DNA of 64,000 nucleotides from an uncultured Chloroflexia bacterium (GCA_963766735.1 CAVYBU010000002.1:96001-160000); one strand, 5' to 3'. Numbered from the stretch's first letter, positions 53,706-63,905 are shown. Made by a program: numbers and translations. Notes: generated by a model not told the origin, from the sequence alone.

Positions 53706-53778
53706 TGTGATCCCCTCCCTGGCGGGAGACGCGGCCCTTGTTCGCCCCCGTTCACTCGTTGAAGCCTACAATCCTGCC

Positions 53779-54183
53779 ATGACCGATCGACCGCTCAAGG
53801 TGCTGATCGCGAAGCCCGGCCTGGATGGCCACGACCGCGGCGCCAAGGTGCTCGCGCGTGGCCTCCGGGACGAAGGCTTCGAGGTCGTCTACACCGGCCT
53901 TCGCCAGACCCCCGAAATGATCGTGACGGCGGCGCTCCAGGAGGACGTGGACGTGGTGGGGCTGTCCATCCTGTCCGGCGCGCACATGACCCTGGTGCCC
54001 AGGGTCTGCACCCAGCTGCGGGAGCGTGACCTGGGCGATGTGCTCGTGACGGTGGGTGGGATCGTCCCGGACGAGGACGTCCCGGCGCTTCAGGACGCGG
54101 GCGTGGCCGCGGTCTTCGGGCCCGGCACCACCATCCGCGAGGTCGCCGACTTCATCCGCGCGAACGCGACGCCGCGCGACTAG
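53779..54183 (+). CDS. icmB: Cobalamin-binding small subunit of acyl-CoA mutase
   Basis: [11 protein letters not shown]...GLSILSG...GG B12-binding motif. Confidence 0.9.
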
Positions 54184-54184
54184 C

Positions 54185-55267
54185 GTGGCCGACCTCGCAG
54201 GACCGGCGGCCGGCACCCTCGCCGGAACCGGCGGCAACCCGGTCGGTGCCCTCGCCGGATCGAGTGCAGGCACCTCTGCCGAGCGTGCACAGGTCCTCTC
54301 GGACGCGGCGCGGGCCGGTGACCGGCGCGCCCTCGCCCGGCTCCTGACCGCGGTCGAGAATCACACGGCCGTCGCCGAGCATGCGCTCCGGCGCCTCTAC
54401 CCGCTGGCGGGAGGCGCTCACCTGGTCGGGATCACGGGGCCGCCGGGCGCGGGCAAGTCGACGCTCGTCGCCGCCCTGATCGCGGAGCTGCGCGCGGCCG
54501 GACGGACCGTGGCCGTCGTGGCCGTGGATCCGTCATCACCCATCACCGGCGGCGCCCTCCTCGGCGACCGGGTCCGGATGCAGTCCTACGCCGCCGACGA
54601 CGGGGTCTTCATCCGGTCGATGGCCTCGCGAGGACACGCGGGCGGGCTCGCGGCCACGTCCACCTCTGCCGCGGCGGTGTTCGACGCTGCCGGCTTCGAC
54701 ATCGTGCTGCTGGAGACAGTGGGCACCGGCCAGAGCGAGGTCGAGGTGGCTGCCGCGGCCGACACGACCGTCGTGCTGGAGGCGCCCGAGATGGGCGACG
54801 AAGTCCAGGCGATCAAGGCTGGGCTGCTCGAGGTCGCGGACCTTGTCGTCGTCAACAAGGGCGATCGGCCGGGAGCCCAGCGGACGGCCGCCCAGCTGCG
54901 CGCGATGCTCGTGCCGTCCGTGGCTCGCGAGGACCAGGCCGGCGGCGACGCGTACCGCCCGCTCCCCAAGCACCCGGAGGTCCTCGTCACAACGGCGTCC
55001 ACCGGCGAGGGCGTGCCGGAGCTGCTCACGGCCCTGGATCGGCACCGTGCGACCCTGGCCGGCGGCGCGACCCCCGCAGCCCGCCGGGCCCGGGCCGCGG
55101 CGCAGGTCCGCTCGGTGCTGGTGGAGCGTCTCTGGGAGCGGCTCAGAGCGCCCGGAGCCACGGCGGCCACCGACGCGGCGATCGACGCAGTCGCCGCCCA
55201 CGAGCTCGATCCCTACGCCGCGGCCGACCGCCTCCTGGCCGCGCTGAGCCATGAGGAGCCGTCATGA
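54185..55267 (+). CDS. meaB: MeaB/ArgK GTPase chaperone
   Basis: GPPGAGKST, AVDPSS, GDRVRM, ETVGTGQSE, NKGD. Confidence 0.93.
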   Translation: MADLAGPAAGTLAGTGGNPVGALAGSSAGTSAERAQVLSDAARAGDRRALARLLTAVENHTAVAEHALRRLYPLAGGAHLVGITGPPGAGKSTLVAALIAELRAAGRTVAVVAVDPSSPITGGALLGDRVRMQSYAADDGVFIRSMASRGHAGGLAATSTSAAAVFDAAGFDIVLLETVGTGQSEVEVAAAADTTVVLEAPEMGDEVQAIKAGLLEVADLVVVNKGDRPGAQRTAAQLRAMLVPSVAREDQAGGDAYRPLPKHPEVLVTTASTGEGVPELLTALDRHRATLAGGATPAARRARAAAQVRSVLVERLWERLRAPGATAATDAAIDAVAAHELDPYAAADRLLAALSHEEPS

Positions 55268-56124
55268 CAATCGAGCGCGTGTTCGTCGCCGGGGCCGGCC
55301 TCATGGGCCACGGCATCGCCCAGGTCCATGCGGCCATCGGCAAGCGGGTGACGCTCTACGAGCCCGATCTCGCGCGCGCCGTCGCCGGTCGAGACCGGAT
55401 CGCGGGCAACCTGGACCGTGCGGTGGCGAAGGCCAGGATCACGCCGGAGGCACGCGAGGCCGTCCTGGTCCGCATCCTCCCGACCGACGACCTGGCCGCC
55501 GCGGCCGATGCCGACCTGGTGGTCGAGGCGGTCTTCGAGGACCTCGCGGTCAAGTCCAGCCTGTGGACGGCGCTCGACGCGATCTCCCCTGCGCACGCCG
55601 TGTTCGCGTCCAACACCTCGTCCATCTCGATCGACATGCTCGCCGCGTCGGTGGGGGAGGCCCGACGCGGCCGCTTCGTCGGGATGCACTTCTTCAGTCC
55701 CGTGCCCGTGATGCCGCTGATCGAGCTGATCCGCGGCTCCGGAACCTCCGATGAGACGGAAGCGGACATCCGGGCGCTGGCCGGTGAGCTGGGCAAGCAG
55801 GTGATCGTGTCCGCGGATCGGCCCGGGTTCATCGTCAACCGAATCCTGATGCCGCTCCTCGCGGAGGCGATGCGAGCCTACGAAGAGGGTCTGGGCACGG
55901 CCGAGGACATCGACACCGGTGCGAAGGTCGGCCTCAACCACCCGATGGGGCCGCTCGAGCTGGCCGACTTCATCGGCCTGGACGTCTGTCTGGGCGTGAT
56001 GCGCGTGCTCGAAGAGGGGATCGGAGGCCCGCAGTTCGCCCCGCCCAAGGTGCTGATCGACCTTGTCACAGCCGGTCATCTGGGCCAGAAGACGGGCCGG
56101 GGCTTCCACGTCTACCCGCGCTGA
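55264..56124 (+). CDS. hbd: 3-hydroxybutyryl-CoA dehydrogenase
   Basis: GAGLMGHGIA, SNTSS, GMHFFSP, PGFIVNR, HPMGP. Confidence 0.92.
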   Translation: MTIERVFVAGAGLMGHGIAQVHAAIGKRVTLYEPDLARAVAGRDRIAGNLDRAVAKARITPEAREAVLVRILPTDDLAAAADADLVVEAVFEDLAVKSSLWTALDAISPAHAVFASNTSSISIDMLAASVGEARRGRFVGMHFFSPVPVMPLIELIRGSGTSDETEADIRALAGELGKQVIVSADRPGFIVNRILMPLLAEAMRAYEEGLGTAEDIDTGAKVGLNHPMGPLELADFIGLDVCLGVMRVLEEGIGGPQFAPPKVLIDLVTAGHLGQKTGRGFHVYPR

Positions 56125-56139
56125 GGTGCAGGCGAGGTC

Positions 56140-56168
56140 TTGACAGCGTAGAGTTCATGACATAAACT
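56140..56168 (+). promoter_or_regulatory. Consensus-like sigma-70 promoter TTGACA-N17-TAAACT with overlapping imperfect palindrome
   Basis: AT-rich patch; GTAG..TT...AAACTAC inverted elements across the spacer and -10. Confidence 0.7.
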
Positions 56169-56178
56169 ACTTCATGCC

Positions 56179-56775
56179 ATGAACACGCTCAGTTCGAAGC
56201 TTCCACCCGAGTCCCTCGAGTCACGGCTGTTTCGTACGTTCTGGGACGACGGCCTGCTCGACACCTTGTTCGGCGTCGGCGCGATCGGCGTCGCCGTCTG
56301 CTGGGCCGCCGGCCTGATCCCGCTCGGCGCCATCGTGCCGGCCCTCCTCGCCGTCGCCTGGAACCCGTTGCGGAGGAGGATCATCGAGCCACGCACTGGC
56401 TGGGTCGAGTTCAGCCGGGCGCGGACCGAGACCAACCGCCGCAGGCTGATCGGCGCGCTCTGGCTTGGTGTCGCCGTCCTGGCGCTGGTGCTGATCGCGG
56501 GCACGCGATCCGGCGGACCGTTGTTCCCGGATGACCTCGCGGCCGCCATTCCCAGCGTCCTGATCGGCGTCATGGCGGTCCTGGTCGCGGCGGGGTTGCG
56601 CGCGATTCGCTTCCTCGCGTACGCGCTGCTGTTCGTCGTGTTCGGCCTCGCGACGGCCCTTCTCGAGGGAGAGCCCGAGGTTGCGATGCTGGCCGGCGGC
56701 GGAGCGGTCGCCCTCTCGGGCGTCTGGCTCCTCGCGCGCTTCTTCCGTGCGACGGTTCCCGTTGACGAGCGCTGA
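56179..56775 (+). CDS. Membrane protein (about 6 TM)
   Basis: DDGLLD...EPRTGWVEF; hydrophobic segments. Confidence 0.75.
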   Translation: MNTLSSKLPPESLESRLFRTFWDDGLLDTLFGVGAIGVAVCWAAGLIPLGAIVPALLAVAWNPLRRRIIEPRTGWVEFSRARTETNRRRLIGALWLGVAVLALVLIAGTRSGGPLFPDDLAAAIPSVLIGVMAVLVAAGLRAIRFLAYALLFVVFGLATALLEGEPEVAMLAGGGAVALSGVWLLARFFRATVPVDER

Positions 56776-56800
56776 GGCACGGCGCGGCCGGCCAGCGGTC

Positions 56801-57091
56801 GTGCCCGAGATCGACACCTTCATCCACGAGCCGGCGCGGCTCCGGCTGCTGGTGTTCCTAGTGATGCTCGAACGCGCCGACTTCGTCTACCTGATCACGC
56901 ACAGCGGGCTCAGCCGGGGCAACCTGTCCGTCCAGATGAGCAAGCTCGCCGAGGCGGGCTACGTGGCGATCGACAAGAGCTTCGCGAACAACCGGCCGCA
57001 CACCCTGTATCGGCTGACCGACGCTGGGCGCGAGGCGCTGCGGGCCTATCGCCGGGACATGGCGACGATCCTGAGCGCGCTCCCGGGCTGA
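56801..57091 (+). CDS. Winged-helix (HTH_34/MarR-like) regulator
   Basis: IHEPARL, GNLSVQMSKLAEAGYV, LTDAGR. Confidence 0.85.
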   Translation: MPEIDTFIHEPARLRLLVFLVMLERADFVYLITHSGLSRGNLSVQMSKLAEAGYVAIDKSFANNRPHTLYRLTDAGREALRAYRRDMATILSALPG

Positions 57092-57114
57092 CCGCCCCGG
57101 TGTAGATTGCGGGC

Positions 57115-58350
57115 ATGGAACAGTCGAGCGGACCCAACGGCAACGTCTATCTCGTCAGCGCCGCGCGCACCCCGATCGGAAAGTTCGGCGGCGCGCTCGC
57201 CGGCGTCCCCGCCACCGAGCTCGGCGCCACGGCGATTCGCGCCGCTGTCGATCGGTCGGGCCTGGCCGGCAACGCGCCCTTGGACGAGGTCATCATGGGT
57301 CAGGTCCTCGGCGCCGGGTCCGGGCAGGCGCCCGCCCGCCAGGCGCTGCTGCGGGCCGGCCTCGCGGACACCACCCCCGCCACCACGATCAACCGCGTCT
57401 GCGGATCGGGCCTGAAGGCGATCATGTTCGCTGCGGCCGGCATCCGCGCGGGTGACGGCGACCTGTACGTCGCGGGCGGCATGGAGTCCATGAACCAGGC
57501 GCCGTTCCTGCTCCGCAAGGCGCGGTTCGGGTACCGGCTGGGGCAGGGCGCCCTGGACGATTCGGCGGTCCTGGACGGGCTCTGGTGCGCGGTCGAGGAC
57601 TGTCACATGGGTACCCACGCCGAGCGGGTCGCGATCAAGTCGGGCGTGAACCGGGAGGACCAGGACGCGTTCGCTCTCGGGAGCCACCAGAAGGCAGTTG
57701 CCGCGCAGGACCAAGGCCGGTTCGACGCCGAAATGGCCCCGGTGACGATCCGCGACGCGAAGGGGCGCGAGACGGTGATCTCCGTGGACGAGGGCCCGCG
57801 GCGCGATTCGACCGCCGAGGCACTGGCCCGCCTTGCGCCGGTCTTCGACCTGCCGACGGGAGAAGATCGCGGGAGCGCCACCATCGGGACCGTGACCGCC
57901 GGCAACGCCCCTGGCATCACGGACGGGGCCGCGGCCGTGGTCGTGGCTTCTGAGCGAGCCGTGGAGCGGCACGGGCTGGCGCCCCTTGCCCGGGTGGTCG
58001 GCTACGCGCAGGCCGAGGTGACGCCGAAGTGGCTGTTCCTTGCACCTGTCGCGGGCGTCCGGGCGCTCGAGGCGAAGACGGGACTGGCCGTGGACGACTA
58101 CGACCTGATCGAGGTCAACGAGGCGTTCGCGGCGCAGGTCCTGGCGGACGGGCGAGAGCTTGGCTTCGACTGGTCGAAGGTGAACGTCAACGGTGGCGCG
58201 ATCGCGCTCGGGCACCCGATCGGGGCGAGCGGTGCGCGGATCGTGGCCACGCTGCTCCACGAGCTGGGGCGGCGCGGCGGGCGGTACGGGCTGGCCACGC
58301 TCTGCCTGGGCGGCGGCGGCTCCGTCGCCATGGCGCTCGAACGGGTCTGA
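57115..58350 (+). CDS. Acetyl-CoA C-acetyltransferase (thiolase)
   Basis: [30 protein letters not shown]. Confidence 0.96.
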
Positions 58351-58462: not shown

Positions 58463-58537
58463 GGGCCGGTAGCTCAACGGTAGAGCAAGTGACTCTTAAT
58501 CACTAGGTTCAGGGTTCGAATCCCTGCCGGCTCACCA
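58463..58537 (+). tRNA. tRNA-Lys (anticodon CTT)
   Basis: GGGCCGG/CCGGCTC-ACCA acceptor, AGTGA-CTCTTAA-TCACT arm, GTTCGAATC. Confidence 0.96.
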
Positions 58538-58852: not shown

Positions 58853-60064
58853 ATGGGCGAGGACGGTCTGTACGCCGCACTGGTGCGGCGCGGGATGTCC
58901 CGCCGGTCGTTCCTCCAGTTCTCGACGGCGATGGCTGCCGCCCTTGCGCTCCCGGCCACCTACGCGCCGCGAATCACCGCGGCCCTCACCGTCGCGCCGC
59001 GCCTGCCCGTCATCTGGATCCGCGGCCAGGGCTGCGGTGGCAACACGGAGGCCTTCATGCGGGCCGCCGACCCGTCCGTGGCCACGCTGCTGCTCGAGAC
59101 GCTGTCGATGGAGTACCACGAGGCGTTCCTGGCCTCCGCGGGCGACTCGAGGGACCTGATCCTCGCCGACGCCATGGACCGCTACCCGAACGGGTACCTC
59201 GCGGTTGTCGAGGGTGCCGTGCCCACCGGCGCCGGCGGTGCCTACTGCCTGGTGGGCGGACGCCCCGTGGGAGACGTCGTGCGCGAGGTCAGCGACGGCG
59301 CCCTGGCCACGCTGGCCGTCGGCTCCTGTGCGTTTGATGGCGGCGCCGCGGGGGCCAGCGGGGGCCAGACCGGGGCCGAAGGCATCCGGTCGCTGGTCGG
59401 CAACGGGCAGCTGATCACCTTGCCGGGTTGCCCCCTCAACGTGGAGAACCTCGTCGCGACGATCGTCCACTACCTCACGTTCGGCGAGCTGCCGCCGGCG
59501 GATCCGATGGGCCGGCCCCTCTTCGCCTACGGGCCCCTCGTTCACAACAAGTGCGAGCGCCGGCCGTTCTTCGAGTTCGGCGAGTTCGCGCTCGCGTGGG
59601 GCGACGAGGGGGCCCAGAAGGGCTGGTGCCTGTACAAGCTCGGCTGCAAGGGCCCAGAGACGATGGCCAACTGCCCGACCGTCAAGTACGGCGACGGGGT
59701 CAGCTGGAACGTCCGGGCCGGCCACGGCTGCGTAGGCTGCACGATGCCGGACTTCTGGGATGCGATGGGACCCGCCTACGACCGGCTCCCGCCGGTGATC
59801 CCGTTCCTGCCCAACATCACGGCCGACCAGATCGGTGTGGCCATGGTCGCGGGTGTCGGGGCGGTTGCCGCGGCGCACGCGGTGGGCATGGGCGTCCGCT
59901 ACAAGCGTCGCGCGGTCCTCGAGAGCCGGGCGGCCGCCGCCCAGGCGGCCGAGGGAGCCGGCGAAGCTCGTGCCGATGACGCCGGAGCCGCCGGTGCCGG
60001 AGACATGGCCAACGCCGGCGTCGAAGACACGGCCAGCGGCGGCGCAGACCCGGAGGCGCGCTGA
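58853..60064 (+). CDS. [NiFe]-hydrogenase small subunit (Tat signal, C-terminal TM), atypical proximal cluster
   Basis: SRRSFL Tat motif; CGGN, GSCA, PGCP; HNKC, CLYKLGCKGP, GHGCVGC. Confidence 0.92.
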   Translation: MGEDGLYAALVRRGMSRRSFLQFSTAMAAALALPATYAPRITAALTVAPRLPVIWIRGQGCGGNTEAFMRAADPSVATLLLETLSMEYHEAFLASAGDSRDLILADAMDRYPNGYLAVVEGAVPTGAGGAYCLVGGRPVGDVVREVSDGALATLAVGSCAFDGGAAGASGGQTGAEGIRSLVGNGQLITLPGCPLNVENLVATIVHYLTFGELPPADPMGRPLFAYGPLVHNKCERRPFFEFGEFALAWGDEGAQKGWCLYKLGCKGPETMANCPTVKYGDGVSWNVRAGHGCVGCTMPDFWDAMGPAYDRLPPVIPFLPNITADQIGVAMVAGVGAVAAAHAVGMGVRYKRRAVLESRAAAAQAAEGAGEARADDAGAAGAGDMANAGVEDTASGGADPEAR

Positions 60065-60065
60065 C

Positions 60066-61841
60066 ATGGCCCGCGTCGTGATCGATCCCGTCACGCGGGC
60101 CAGCGGCCATCTGCGCATCGAGGCGGACGTCTCGGGCGGCGCGGTGGCCGAGGCGTGGACCTCCGCCACGATGTTCCGGGACCTGGAGACGGTCCTGCGC
60201 GGACGTGACGCCCGCGACGCCTGGCTTCTCGCGGAGCGCATCTGCGGAACGTGCACCAGCGTCCACGCGCTTGCGTCCGTGCGCGCTGTGGAGAACGCCC
60301 TCGGCATCGACATCCCCACCAACGCCCGCCTGATCAGGAACATCCTGGCGTCGACCCAGCTGGTCCGGGACCACGTGCTCGGGTTCTACGTGACCCAGGG
60401 CCCGGACTGGGTCGATGCCAGGTCCGCGCTCAAGGCCGATCCGGTCGCCACTGCCCGCCTCGCGCGCGAGACCAGTTCGCGGCCGCAGTCCGGTCCCGAG
60501 CACCTCACGAGCGTCCGCGACAGGCTTGCCGCGGTCATCGACTCGGACCAGCCCGGCATGTTCGCGGGCGGCCCGTGGGGCCACCCGGCCTACCAGCTCA
60601 GCCCGGAGCAGAGCCTGCTTCTGCTGGCGCACATGCTCGAGGCGCTGGATTGGCAGCAGTCATTCATGCGGATCCACGCGCTGCTCGGCGGCAAGGATCC
60701 CCACCCGCAGACGTACGTCGTCGGCGGGATGGCGCTGGCGCCGCCCTGGGGCGGACCCAACCCGCCCCTGACCCGGGAGCACCCGATGGTCCCGGACCAC
60801 AAGGCGCCGGTCGCCCTGAGCGAGGCCGGGATCGCCATGATCGATGACCTGATCGCGAAGGGGCGGGCCTTCGTCGAGCAGGTGTTCGTGCCCGACGTGC
60901 GCCTCCTCACTGCGGCCTACCCGGAGTGGGGCGCGCTGGGCGCCAGTTCGGGCGACTACCTGTCCTGGGGTGACTATCCCCTAGGGGACGGCAAGGATCC
61001 AGCTCTGTTCCTTCCGCGCGGGCGTGTCTCGGGCGGCAACATCAACCTTGGGCTGGAGGCCGAACCGGACCGCGTGGCCGAGACCGTGACGCACGCCTGG
61101 TACACCTACACGGGCGGTGACGCGGCGCTCCTTCGACCGTCCGAGGGCGAGACCGTGCCCGCGTGGTCCGGGCCCCCTCTGCCTCTGGAGACCCTCGACG
61201 GCGCGGCCAAGTACTCGTGGGTCAAGGCCGCACGCTACGACGGCAAGCCCGTCGAGACGGGGCCCCTCGCCCGCACGCTCGTCGGGATCGCGAACGGCCA
61301 GTCGGAGATACGTGAGGGGCTGGCCATGCTGCTCGAGGAGACAGGCCTCGACGTCGAGGTCATGCCGAGCGTCCTGGGGCGGATGCTTGCCCGGGCGCTC
61401 GAGGCCCAGGTCCTGGCCCGCCAGGCAGCCACCTGTCTCTCGGAGCTCAAATCGAACCTCGCCACGGGCGACGTCGCGGTAGCGGACCTGTCGTTCTGGG
61501 AGCAGGGGTCCTGGCCCTCAGAGGCCGAGGGCCGCTCCATCGGCGAGGGGCCGAGGGGAGCCGTTGGCCACTGGGTGCGCATCCGTGACGGCCTGATCGA
61601 CGCCTACCAGGTGGTGGACGGGAGCACCTGGAACACCTCGCCGCGAGACGCGATGGGCGGCCGCGGCCCCATCGAGACCGCCCTTGTCGGCACGCCGGTC
61701 GCCGACCCGTCCCGCCCCCTGGAGATCCAGCGCGTCGTGCATTCGTTCGCGCCGTGCGCCGGCTGCGCCGCCCACCTGTTCGATCCGCGGGCGGTCGGCC
61801 CGCTCGAGATCCGCGTCCGCGCGGGGGAGAGGACCCGATGA
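60066..61841 (+). CDS. [NiFe]-hydrogenase large-subunit homolog with atypical active-site residues
   Basis: L1 RICGTCTSVH, PRG, L2 HSFAPCAGCAAH plus C-terminal extension. Confidence 0.9.
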   Translation: MARVVIDPVTRASGHLRIEADVSGGAVAEAWTSATMFRDLETVLRGRDARDAWLLAERICGTCTSVHALASVRAVENALGIDIPTNARLIRNILASTQLVRDHVLGFYVTQGPDWVDARSALKADPVATARLARETSSRPQSGPEHLTSVRDRLAAVIDSDQPGMFAGGPWGHPAYQLSPEQSLLLLAHMLEALDWQQSFMRIHALLGGKDPHPQTYVVGGMALAPPWGGPNPPLTREHPMVPDHKAPVALSEAGIAMIDDLIAKGRAFVEQVFVPDVRLLTAAYPEWGALGASSGDYLSWGDYPLGDGKDPALFLPRGRVSGGNINLGLEAEPDRVAETVTHAWYTYTGGDAALLRPSEGETVPAWSGPPLPLETLDGAAKYSWVKAARYDGKPVETGPLARTLVGIANGQSEIREGLAMLLEETGLDVEVMPSVLGRMLARALEAQVLARQAATCLSELKSNLATGDVAVADLSFWEQGSWPSEAEGRSIGEGPRGAVGHWVRIRDGLIDAYQVVDGSTWNTSPRDAMGGRGPIETALVGTPVADPSRPLEIQRVVHSFAPCAGCAAHLFDPRAVGPLEIRVRAGERTR

Positions 61842-62647
61842 CCGCCACCCCGAACACCCTGCGGGGGACGACGGCCCCCGTCGATGTCCCGGCCCCGGCC
61901 GACCCGGAGGCTGCGCCTGGCGCTCCGGCACAGGCGGCCCACGAGATCGACCGGCCGCACGAGCGCGTCCGCCTCTACATCTGGCAGGTGCCGGTGCGGG
62001 TGACGCACTGGGTGACCGCCGCCTGCATCGTCATCCTGAGCGTCACCGGGCTGTACATCGCGGACCCGTTCCTGGTCCCGCCCGGCGGATCGGTGATGTC
62101 GACGATCCGGCTGCTCCACATCCTGACCGCGCTCCTCTTCCTTGTCTCGGGGATCATCCGCACCTGGTGGCTGCTGGCCGGGAACCGGTTCTCCCGATGG
62201 TCCGCATTCATCCCTACCTCCAAGTTCCAGGCAACCGAGCTGTTCCGCCAGGCGGGCTTCTACGGGTTCGTCCGCAAGGAGATCCCCAAGGTGCTCGGCC
62301 ACAACCAGCTGGCCGCGACCGCGTACCTCGTGCTGTTCGCGCTGCTGCTCGTGGAGACGGTCACCGGCTTCGCTCTCGACGGGCTCATGGGCACCGAGCC
62401 TGGCGCCACGCTCTTCGGCTGGATGCGCGAGCTGTTCGGCCCGCAGATGCTGCGCCTCGTCCACCACCTCGCCATGTACGCGATCCTCGCAATCGCGCTG
62501 TTCCACATCTACAGCTGCATCCTGGTCGACCACATCGAGAGCAACGGGCTGATCTCCAGCATCGTGACGGGCTCCAAGTTCCCGACCCGCGAGGAGATCG
62601 TGGAGTCCCGCGACGGCGGCCCCGAGATGCTGGAGAGGGCGGAATGA
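61838..62647 (+). CDS. Ni/Fe-hydrogenase b-type cytochrome subunit
   Basis: VRVTHW, RLLH, GHN, RLVHH, FHIY haem-ligand histidines; 4 TM. Confidence 0.92.
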   Translation: MTATPNTLRGTTAPVDVPAPADPEAAPGAPAQAAHEIDRPHERVRLYIWQVPVRVTHWVTAACIVILSVTGLYIADPFLVPPGGSVMSTIRLLHILTALLFLVSGIIRTWWLLAGNRFSRWSAFIPTSKFQATELFRQAGFYGFVRKEIPKVLGHNQLAATAYLVLFALLLVETVTGFALDGLMGTEPGATLFGWMRELFGPQMLRLVHHLAMYAILAIALFHIYSCILVDHIESNGLISSIVTGSKFPTREEIVESRDGGPEMLERAE

Positions 62648-63186
62648 TCGCAACGGGCCCGGCCGTCGTTCTCGGGGTGGGCAACGTGCTGCTCCGCGAC
62701 GACGGCGTCGGTGTGCGCGTGGTCCAGGAGCTCGCCCGGCTGACGGCGGACGACCCGCGCGCGGTGCCCAGCGGCACGCACCTGGTGGATGGCGGGACTC
62801 TCGGCCTGGACCTCCTCCAGGCCGTGCGCGGCGCTCGCTCGCTGCTGCTCGTCGATGCGGTGAACCTGGGCCGGGCGCCCGGCACCGTCAGCGTCCTGCG
62901 TGGGCAGGCGATCACCGCGTCCTGCGTGGGCGGGGCGATCCCCGGCGGCGTGGGCGAGCTGCTGGGCATGGGTCGGCTGATGGGATGGCTGCCGGATCAC
63001 GTGACCCTCCTCGGCATCGAGGCGGGCGACACCGGGACGGGGGTCGGCCTCTCGGCCTGCGTTGAGGCGGCCGTCCCGACTGCCGTGGAGATGGCTCGCG
63101 TGGAGCTCCGCGCGCTCGACGAGCTCGCACCGGCTGGGAGGTCGGAGGCGCCGGCGGTCCGGCTGAAGGAAGGGGCGGCGGCATGA
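62644..63186 (+). CDS. Hydrogenase maturation protease homolog
   Basis: GVGNVLLRDDGVG, VDGGT, VDAV; conserved His absent. Confidence 0.87.
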   Translation: MIATGPAVVLGVGNVLLRDDGVGVRVVQELARLTADDPRAVPSGTHLVDGGTLGLDLLQAVRGARSLLLVDAVNLGRAPGTVSVLRGQAITASCVGGAIPGGVGELLGMGRLMGWLPDHVTLLGIEAGDTGTGVGLSACVEAAVPTAVEMARVELRALDELAPAGRSEAPAVRLKEGAAA

Positions 63187-63905
63187 GACGCAGGCTTGAC
63201 AGGACGCTGCGCCTGCTCATCGCGATGAACCTGATCGTGGTCGCCCTGCTCGCGTTGACCATGGTCGCGGGCTGGATGAAGGTCCTGCCGTCGGTCGGCG
63301 GCCCAACGCCGGCCACCTCCGACGCGCCGGCGGCCACCCCGGAACAGATGGAGATGGGCCTCGCCCATATCCCGACGTCCAGCAGCTGCCTGCTCTGCCA
63401 CGAGGCGGGTGGCGCCAGCGGGGTCAAGGTCATCCCGGCCATTGGCCACCCGCTGGAGGGCTGGGGGGCCTGCCTGACCTGCCACACGGACGACAAGCTC
63501 GGCCGCAACGCACCCGGTCACAAGGACATTGCCCAGACCGAGTGTGTCAACTGCCACAAGGTGGCCCAGGAGGGCCCGTCGATCACCCAGGCCCACGCAG
63601 ATCTGCACGAAGCGTGCTTTGACTGCCACGGCTCCGTGGCGCACCTCCCGTCCAGCATGGTTGGGCGCAACCAGGACGAGTGCTGGCTCTGCCACAAGCC
63701 GAACCCGGCCCCGCCGCCCACGAGACCGCATCCGGAGCCTGGGCAGCTGACATGCCGCGCCTGCCACCAGGCAGCAGACGCTGGCGCCTTGCCGATCGAT
63801 CATGCGCTGCGGGCGGACTCGAGCTGCCTGCTCTGCCACAACATCCGGGCGACGTCGGTCGAGAGCTCGTCCGAGGTCCCGTCCGCGAGCCCGTCCGGGG
63901 GCTGA
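63183..63905 (+). CDS. Membrane-anchored heptahaem cytochrome c
   Basis: N-terminal TM; seven CxxCH motifs (CLLCH, CLTCH, CVNCH, CFDCH, CWLCH, CRACH, CLLCH). Confidence 0.9.
   Translation: MRRRLDRTLRLLIAMNLIVVALLALTMVAGWMKVLPSVGGPTPATSDAPAATPEQMEMGLAHIPTSSSCLLCHEAGGASGVKVIPAIGHPLEGWGACLTCHTDDKLGRNAPGHKDIAQTECVNCHKVAQEGPSITQAHADLHEACFDCHGSVAHLPSSMVGRNQDECWLCHKPNPAPPPTRPHPEPGQLTCRACHQAADAGALPIDHALRADSSCLLCHNIRATSVESSSEVPSASPSGG

Follow-up and report, generated by a model that had tools for sequence, protein, structure and literature searches.

Can a membrane-bound [NiFe]-hydrogenase work without its gate glutamate and its tunnel valine? Both residues are textbook fixtures of the [NiFe]-hydrogenase mechanism, known mostly through site-directed mutants. 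The question is raised by a five-gene operon in a 64,000-nt stretch of DNA (G000:C2:96001-160000, hereafter the window; G+C 71.5%) from G000, a 3.6-Mb genome, 94% complete, whose lineage is a distinct uncultured Chloroflexota (Limnocylindria-type) clade of soil and sediment. An earlier prediction, made from the window alone (hereafter the original prediction), described a hydrogenase-like complex with a coordinated loss of H2-catalysis residues in three genes and an intact electron wire, and took it for a selected divergent clade: a non-H2 redox enzyme, a sensor or a structural paralogue. We find that the substitutions are real and that the clade is under selection. We also find precedents among H2 oxidizers for several of the changes, and put at roughly 0.6 the probability that the operon encodes a working respiratory uptake [NiFe]-hydrogenase, probably O2-adapted, whose proton path would be rerouted and whose electrons would feed a cytochrome b and a heptahaem cytochrome c.

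Sequences and numbering

Residue columns were assigned by aligning the window proteins with Escherichia coli K-12 HyaAB, HybOC, HyaD and HybD and with solved structures. The Cupriavidus necator references are pHG1 genes taken from a plasmid collection. The large-subunit clade set holds 119 homologues at 56-100% identity (120 were listed, and one lacking the C-terminal motif was dropped); the small-subunit set holds 120. A further 34 large subunits, used for comparison, were picked for the R-x-E-G motif, and because that motif was the selection criterion a Glu count in them is circular. Ten related loci were gathered by single-protein patterns, and six more were added from genomes of the class. 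Labels beginning with L and P denote related loci and homologues, respectively, and C2, C3, C4, C17 and C25 are contigs of G000. The five genes, the codons within them and the tRNA gene below are all on the plus strand.

The five-gene operon

The operon encodes a [NiFe]-hydrogenase small subunit (403 aa, 58853..60064; PF14720, PF01058, and TIGR00391 at 360 bits, cut-off 179.5), the large subunit (591 aa, 60066..61841; PF00374, 554.6 bits), a hydrogenase-type cytochrome b (269 aa, 61838..62647; TIGR02125, 126.5 bits, cut-off 121.5), a HyaD/HybD-type maturation endopeptidase (180 aa, 62644..63186; TIGR00072, 112 bits, cut-off 47.45) and a heptahaem cytochrome c (240 aa, 63183..63905) that has CxxCH seven times and is anchored in the membrane by an N-terminal helix. 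Pfam and NCBIfam matches back all five assignments. A 1-nt gap separates the first two genes, three 4-nt overlaps follow, and there are no internal stops. ARAGORN places a tRNA-Lys gene (CTT, 58463..58537) 315 bases upstream; it is a mere neighbour, with no demonstrated functional link to the operon. Gene calls, overlaps and ARAGORN agree with the original description of a tightly coupled operon, free of frameshifts, following tRNA-Lys.

Large subunit

The metal ligands are in place. The window protein has the Ni/Fe cysteines C60, C63, C564 and C567, the histidine H570 and a 21-residue C-terminal extension, and the cysteines and the C-terminal His are kept in 118-119 of the 119 clade members. 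Its best PDB match is 3myr_B (E 2e-148); 5aa5_C matches at E 3e-25.

The proton gate is not in place. Codon S13 (60102..60104) falls in the column of the gate Glu, HyaB E28 (TRASGH versus TRIEGH). No clade member has Glu there; the column reads G in 102, N in 12, D in 3 and S in 2. Outside the clade, Glu occupies it in 32 of 37 representatives (at least 500 residues, with a readable motif). The five exceptions are P0121, which is the clade's sister, and P0160, P0165, P0204 and P0231, from unrelated lineages.

That four unrelated [NiFe] large-subunit lineages lack the gate Glu, one of them (P0231) from Candidatus Kapabacteria, suggests that Glu-less enzymes evolved repeatedly. In P0165 the changes form a comparable set, with His at 28, CGTC, Gly-Ala at 530-531 and Gly before PC.

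Further columns around the site are altered across the clade. The gas-tunnel Val (HyaB V78) is replaced at codon T62 (60249..60251), the column holding T in 109, S in 7 and A in 3 of 119, and the HyaB L126 column, at codon T110 (60393..60395), is filled by A, R, S, T or G in the clade. His is gone from the HyaB H122 column, the L512 column is V in 113/119, and the G503 column is S in 116/119. In the alignment of the 119 homologues, codons D518-G519 (61617..61622) occupy the columns of HyaB V530-P531. Asp is found at V530 in all 119 and in the sister P0121, while P531 has become G (64) or A (55). The HyaB Val-Pro pair precedes the Ser/Thr that contacts a cyanide ligand, and the Val of this column presumably lines the Fe-CO pocket in Desulfovibrio structures; a literature search on these residue names found nothing. 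The canopy Asp, HyaB D574, corresponds to codon A562 (61749..61751; FAPCAGC versus FDPCLAC), in a variable column where clade members have A (66), N (20), D (17), S (13), G (2) or V (1).

The clade also has an insert of its own. Its 17 residues (227-243; 60744..60794) follow the GGKDPHPQ..VGG loop and are missing from 33-34 of the 34 comparison sequences. W228, G230, P231, H239 and P240 within it are invariant in 119/119.

One set of residues has been kept with particular care. R497 (HyaB Arg509) is present in 114/119, with Gly in 4, and D102, H103 and E446 are each present in 119/119; all four are better kept in the clade than in the 34 comparison sequences. An AlphaFold2 model of the large subunit has a pLDDT of 82.9 and a pTM of 0.87, with low confidence over residues 9-14 (the gate loop), 210-245 (the insert) and 565-591 (the C-terminus).

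Small subunit, protease and cytochromes

The small subunit carries a twin-arginine translocation (Tat) signal (PF10518, 23.4 bits, cut-off 22.7; TIGR01409, 18.8 bits, cut-off 16.7). It has three sites for Fe-S clusters, and its C-terminal part holds a membrane helix and a tail rich in Ala and Glu. Its medial (three Cys) and distal (His plus three Cys) Fe-S ligands are retained, as are three of the four proximal ones. At the fourth, the column of Cys20 (HyaA mature numbering), the window has codon N64 (59042..59044; GCGGN versus ECTGC), and the 120 homologues have N (88), E (16), D (15) or a gap (1). The supernumerary Cys19 and Cys120 of O2-tolerant 1d enzymes are missing from the window protein.

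This fourth ligand does not belong to the Glu-loss package. Elsewhere in G000 (C3:246187-250778) lies a canonical group 1 operon with TRIEGH, DPCLAC and a protease that has its His, and this Glu-bearing paralogue also has Asn at Cys20 (DCAGN). The Cys20 change is therefore independent of the loss of Glu, and a non-Cys fourth proximal ligand may be common in this neighbourhood of group 1.

Contigs matching the small-subunit gene pile up and break at 59616-59655 in all four runs (region 59522-59708), with loose ends on both sides. The break reflects the conserved GWCLYK..GCKGP motif, which small subunits of other organisms share, and is not a feature of this genome.

In the protease, HybD E16 is matched by D20 and D71 is retained. 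The column of HybD His93 is Pro or Gly, in a His-less loop (62929-62949). The His is missing in 11 of 11 variant operons and present in all seven references (HyaD, HybD, HycI, HoxM, HoxW, the AH protease and the G000 paralogue), so that the Glu/Asp-Asp-His metal site of HyaD/HybD-type endopeptidases lacks its third member here. The protein scores 87.1 bits against the hupD model TIGR00140, under the cut-off of 151.8.

In all, alignment bears out both halves of the original residue inventory. The four Ni/Fe cysteines, the medial and distal Fe-S ligands and the haem ligands are retained (in cytochrome b, five His align with those of HyaC), and the large-subunit Glu-to-Ser and Asp-to-Ala, the small-subunit Cys-to-Asn and the protease His loss are all found.

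Of the five proteins, cytochrome b varies least, at 72-93% identity versus 58-94% for the large subunit (L007-L013). The best-conserved subunit is usually the catalytic one.

The cytochrome c has its CxxCH motifs at residues 69, 97, 121, 145, 167, 191 and 215. It forms a family of its own with 388 homologues, and those that are named bear no functional name. Its likeness to DmsE/MtrA types is faint (TIGR03508, E 1.7e-7, far below the cut-off; PDB 6r2q_A, E 0.012). The latter, its best solved match, is a multihaem chain whose molecule name in the file is 'Cystathionine beta-synthase', a label that looks wrong for a chain rich in CxxCH. A complex prediction with small subunit 46-360, cytochrome b 38-269 and cytochrome c 1-225 returned a score of 0.00, which has no bearing either way.

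Clade, selection and distribution

An exhaustive search of 1.84 billion representatives yielded 4650 large-subunit matches. At 50% identity the clade forms a single cluster (763 bits); P0121 comes next (556 bits), and the representative after it scores 456 bits. We built a quick maximum-likelihood tree of 55 rows from every fifth clade protein, all representatives that have both CxxC motifs and a length of 500-660 residues, HyaB and HybC of E. coli, the G000 paralogue and L014. All Glu-less clade rows and P0121 form one group (25 of the 55 rows, SH-aLRT 100), which adjoins HyaB-like rows and G000's own paralogue. Basal members (P0101, P0106, P0116, P0056, L041-L043 and L045) still have Asp574; therefore Glu was lost and Asp530 gained first, and Asp574 was lost later.

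Ratios of nonsynonymous to synonymous substitution (dN/dS) were computed pairwise by the Nei-Gojobori method. Between the window and L007 they are 0.21 for the small subunit, 0.18 for the large subunit, 0.25 for cytochrome b, 0.33 for the protease and 0.14 for cytochrome c, at a dS of 0.14-0.24. Four further pairs give 0.18-0.20 for the large subunit and 0.29-0.55 for the protease, and the most distant pair, L010 versus the window, gives 0.25-0.58 (large subunit 0.47). For the large subunit of the canonical paralogue, more distant pairs give 0.25-0.39; dS is probably compressed in this high-G+C genome. With the paralogue as control, these values place the operon under purifying selection, somewhat looser than that on the paralogue at short distance.

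The five-gene order recurs in 7 of the 10 related loci; among the others L009 ends at a contig edge, L014 is a canonical Firmicute enzyme and L016 is partial. It recurs in four of the six further loci, where L045 is cut. In the basal member L041 (2512-5647) the small subunit, large subunit, cytochrome b and heptahaem cytochrome c are present, with no protease gene between. In L015 (4813-7751) the small- and large-subunit matches run over several frames, in two and three tblastn pieces; the split could be an assembly error or decay in that lineage.

The original prediction of a selected divergent clade is upheld by these data: the substitutions occur in 119/119 homologues, the clade is monophyletic, dN/dS is 0.14-0.25 for four of the genes, and the gene order is kept. 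The changes are neither private to this genome nor accompanied by a dN/dS near 1, even in the protease (0.29-0.55). That the operon is a decaying pseudo-operon is hardly credible. The idea could draw on the frameshifted matches in L015 and on the Gly at Arg509 in 4/119 large subunits; for the window it is refuted, as had been predicted, by frames that are open here and in 10 further loci, by dN/dS well under 1 and by invariant ligands.

Among 151 genomes sampled from the class, variant-type matches (516-606 bits) were found in nine, all of the window's family (9/45 genomes, versus 0/106 in other families). G096 belongs to this sample and is counted only as a genome without the variant. Six of the nine were inspected, and none has the gate Glu. 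Loci led to five genomes, three with both types of enzyme and two with the variant only. The named homologues are from Chloroflexota and Candidatus Limnocylindrales metagenome-assembled genomes, and near-identical DNA occurs in sediment and aquatic metagenomes of 11 studies.

Precedents for H2 oxidation

Over the 148 N-terminal residues searched, the large subunit of the C. necator enzyme AH (group 1h, 'actinobacterial-type') does not differ from PDB 5aa5_C. Its stretch DPITRIVGSLG is aligned with DPVTRIEGHLR by MAFFT and HMMER alike; because TRIVGS thereby falls on TRIEGH, Val stands in the gate column of an H2 oxidizer. Its small subunit reads GCDGD against CTGC, placing the second Asp in the Cys20 column, the column of window N64. 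PMC11023054 lists AH as an O2-insensitive H2 oxidizer with a 3Cys+1Asp proximal cluster, and states that replacing that Asp abolishes the O2 insensitivity. The same text describes the tunnel Val as very conserved, yet many substitutions of it raise O2 resistance.

A second precedent comes from HynSL of Thiocapsa roseopersicina. PMC3325256 reports that the E14Q change in HynL leaves about 50% of in-vitro activity, that changes of Arg487 and Asp103 abolish activity and that changes of His104 reduce it severely; a proton route Arg487-Asp103-His104-Glu436 is proposed there. Its counterparts in the window are R497, D102, H103 and E446.

The claimed loss of H2 catalysis finds no support in this comparison, given an AH that lacks Glu and has Asp in the Cys20 column, a half-active E14Q and a retained Arg-Asp-His-Glu set. 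The changed positions are also less invariant than had been supposed, at least for Glu and Cys: the C. necator group 1h enzyme has Val and Asp there, and the G000 paralogue has Asn at Cys20. Coordination of the changes stands in that they are shared clade-wide by the 119 close homologues, and falls for Cys20-to-Asn, which the Glu-bearing paralogue shares. Among the substitutions, only the protease His loss (11/11) and Asp518 are without a precedent that we could find, and so are the 17-residue Trp/His insert and the heptahaem cytochrome c.

Proposed function

In the mechanism that we propose, the enzyme would be exported by Tat and face outward, with a Ni-Fe(CN)2CO site assembled by the HypC, HypD, HypE and HypF proteins of G000 and processed by a protease of its own. 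The usual way out for protons, from Cys576 through Glu28 to small-subunit Glu16, would have been abandoned. Protons would leave most likely via Arg497-Asp102-His103-Glu446, and Asp518 and the insert residue His239 might assist. Electrons would run through the three Fe-S clusters to cytochrome b, and so to quinone, and to the co-translated heptahaem cytochrome c. The polar tunnel mouth made by Thr62 and Thr110, the missing gate Glu and the Asn, Asp or Glu at the fourth proximal Cys would parallel the O2-insensitive group 1h and the laboratory Val74 variants; because of these three features we consider the enzyme to be probably a slow, O2-adapted oxidizer in an aerobe.

Several observations weigh against this proposal. 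The protease is without the His that all seven reference proteases have, and Asp518 replaces a residue that we recall as lining the Fe-CO pocket; no precedent was found for either, and either could point to an altered cofactor environment or to another course of maturation. The likeness to group 1h is to a distant enzyme (5aa5_C at E 3e-25 versus 3myr_B at 2e-148) and is convergence. In G000, which is 94% complete, no match to HypB (TIGR00073) exceeded the cut-off. The same genome pair gives a dN/dS of 0.088 for the large subunit of the canonical paralogue, half the value of about 0.2 seen here. In 7 of 9 variant genomes the variant is accompanied by a canonical group 1 enzyme (740-782 bits), and it therefore need not share the canonical job. 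Every clade member is metagenome-derived, no cultured or purified one was found among the homologues and literature searched, and H2 activity is a prediction from sequence.

Alternative explanations

The least improbable alternative, and still an unlikely one, is that this is a normal, fast uptake hydrogenase in which the changes are neutral drift, with water filling the Glu site and no adaptation to O2. The half-active E14Q of T. roseopersicina is in keeping with it (PMC3325256), and so is the variability of position 28 (G, N, D, S) and of position 574 (A, N, D, S, G). Drift would leave unexplained why new residues have become invariant (D518, W228, H239 and P240 in 119/119, with T62 in 109/119) and why the protease His was lost in step in 11/11 operons. 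A possibility that we rate slightly lower is that the site has been retooled, for another small substrate or as a redox module between quinone and the heptahaem cytochrome with the Ni-Fe fold as scaffold. It would draw on the clade-wide rebuilding of the second sphere (E28 lost, V78T, L126 small or polar, V530D invariant, P531G/A, D574 mostly lost), on the invariant insert and the His-less protease, on the canonical paralogue alongside in 7/9 genomes and on a cytochrome b better conserved than the catalytic subunit. The Ni, Fe and Fe-S ligand residues, Arg509 and the Asp-His pair are nevertheless all retained, Glu loss and a non-Cys proximal ligand occur together in a proven H2 oxidizer, and neither the operon nor its flanks hold a gene for another catalytic module.

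Doubtful to a slightly greater degree is that the clade does not oxidize H2 at all, its pocket having been re-lined for another small molecule or its set of Fe ligands altered. The evidence would be the lost Glu gate, the invariant Asp over the Fe diatomics, the polar tunnel mouth and the Trp/His insert; the protease would then no longer read nickel in the usual way, and the enzyme would be wired to an outward heptahaem cytochrome. Far less probable is an H2 sensor like HoxBC/HupUV, binding H2 with little turnover and signalling to a regulator, as the original prediction allowed. Proton exit is impaired on paper, and a response regulator and histidine kinase lie about 5-7 kb downstream (G000 C2:165130-167221). 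Unrelated genes stand between these and the operon, however, and the operon itself encodes no kinase. HoxC has the Glu and no extension, and HoxB has no Tat signal, whereas the window enzyme has a Tat signal, an extension, its own protease, a membrane helix, a cytochrome b and a cytochrome c. The third of the options offered originally, a structural paralogue, is unsupported.

Nature has here carried such changes through an entire membrane-bound lineage, from soil and sediment bacteria that are abundant and uncultured: it is without the Glu and has Thr at the Val, a new invariant Asp beside the Fe site and a non-Cys proximal ligand. If the uptake hydrogenase that we favour is indeed active, it would show that the Arg-Asp-His route is able to carry catalysis, would add to groups 1h and 2a a second, independent way of becoming insensitive to O2, and would connect the oxidation of H2 with a heptahaem cytochrome that lies outside the membrane. 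Homology-based surveys of 'uptake hydrogenases' lump together enzymes with quite different active-site surroundings.

Relation to known hydrogenases

Among the hallmarks of group 1 membrane-bound enzymes, the operon has the Tat signal, the two CxxC pairs with His and extension, and the cytochrome b partner; it lacks the all-Cys proximal ligands, the gate Glu in R-x-E-G-H and the protease His site. Scores fall short of the equivalog cut-offs for Hyd-1 (448 versus 1101) and Hyd-2 (440 versus 969). HyaABCD, HoxKGZM and the G000 paralogue share with it the gene order small subunit, large subunit, cytochrome b, protease, as well as the Tat signal, the small-subunit membrane helix, the Ni/Fe cysteines, the extension and the distal and medial ligands. 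It differs from all three in having no gate Glu, a polar tunnel mouth, Asp518, the 17-residue insert, a His-less protease and an additional gene for the heptahaem cytochrome c, and from HyaABCD and HoxKGZM also in the non-Cys residue at Cys20.

Among solved structures, the Allochromatium vinosum / T. roseopersicina HynSL enzyme (3myr) comes closest to the large subunit, and all of its Arg487-Asp103-His104-Glu436 route is retained here; Hyn differs in having the Glu. We take 3myr to be a group 1e hydrogenase, whose partners are presumably Isp1 and Isp2, unlike the cytochrome b and heptahaem cytochrome c of the window.

AH (5aa5) resembles the window enzyme in lacking the gate Glu (Val instead) and in having a carboxylate or amide in the Cys20 column (Asp there; Asn, Glu or Asp here). 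It differs in that the stretch examined holds neither a Tat signal nor a cytochrome b, in retaining D574 and the protease His, and in having Pro, not Asp, at V530. The window enzyme, with its distant match to 5aa5_C, its Tat signal and its cytochrome b, lies outside group 1h, the cytosolic HofG/HhyL type that has neither. It likewise lies outside the regulatory hydrogenases (HoxBC/HupUV); C. necator HoxC retains the Glu and ends at the His. Compared with the MtrA/DmsE-type 'wire' cytochromes, to which it is weakly similar, the cytochrome c has seven haems, an N-terminal membrane anchor and a family of its own.

In the literature searched, which excluded supplements, neither the clade nor a Glu-less group 1 enzyme nor the heptahaem partner is described; supplementary trees may include such sequences.

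Genome context and expression

G000 encodes much of what maturation would call on. hypF, hypC, hypD and hypE are on C25, and a HypA match lies on C4 beside another hydrogenase. Together with the canonical operon, these are what a survey for hypA-F and a canonical hydrogenase returned, HypB alone staying below its cut-off. A weak match to the HypB model at 54407-54865 was rejected, being a MeaB-like GTPase beside a methylmalonyl-CoA mutase B12 domain. A haem-copper oxidase is also encoded. Two further [NiFe] large-subunit genes were seen (C4:228882-231140 and C17:141384-142622), one of them adjoining HypA and a protease-like gene; because only the ends of PF00374 match, they belong to other hydrogenase groups.

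Two RNA libraries, one from each of two studies, contain contigs that resemble the large subunit, cytochrome b, protease and cytochrome c at 90-98%. These contigs are a weak hint of expression, since such RNA libraries may contain DNA.

The flanks of the operon hold no hydrogenase-related gene: downstream genes are unrelated, and those upstream are fatty-acid and propionate genes. The upstream stretch 53707-58350, unrelated to the operon and named from opening residues only, comprises a methylmalonyl-CoA mutase B12-binding domain, the MeaB-like G3E GTPase, a 3-hydroxyacyl-CoA dehydrogenase-like protein and a thiolase.

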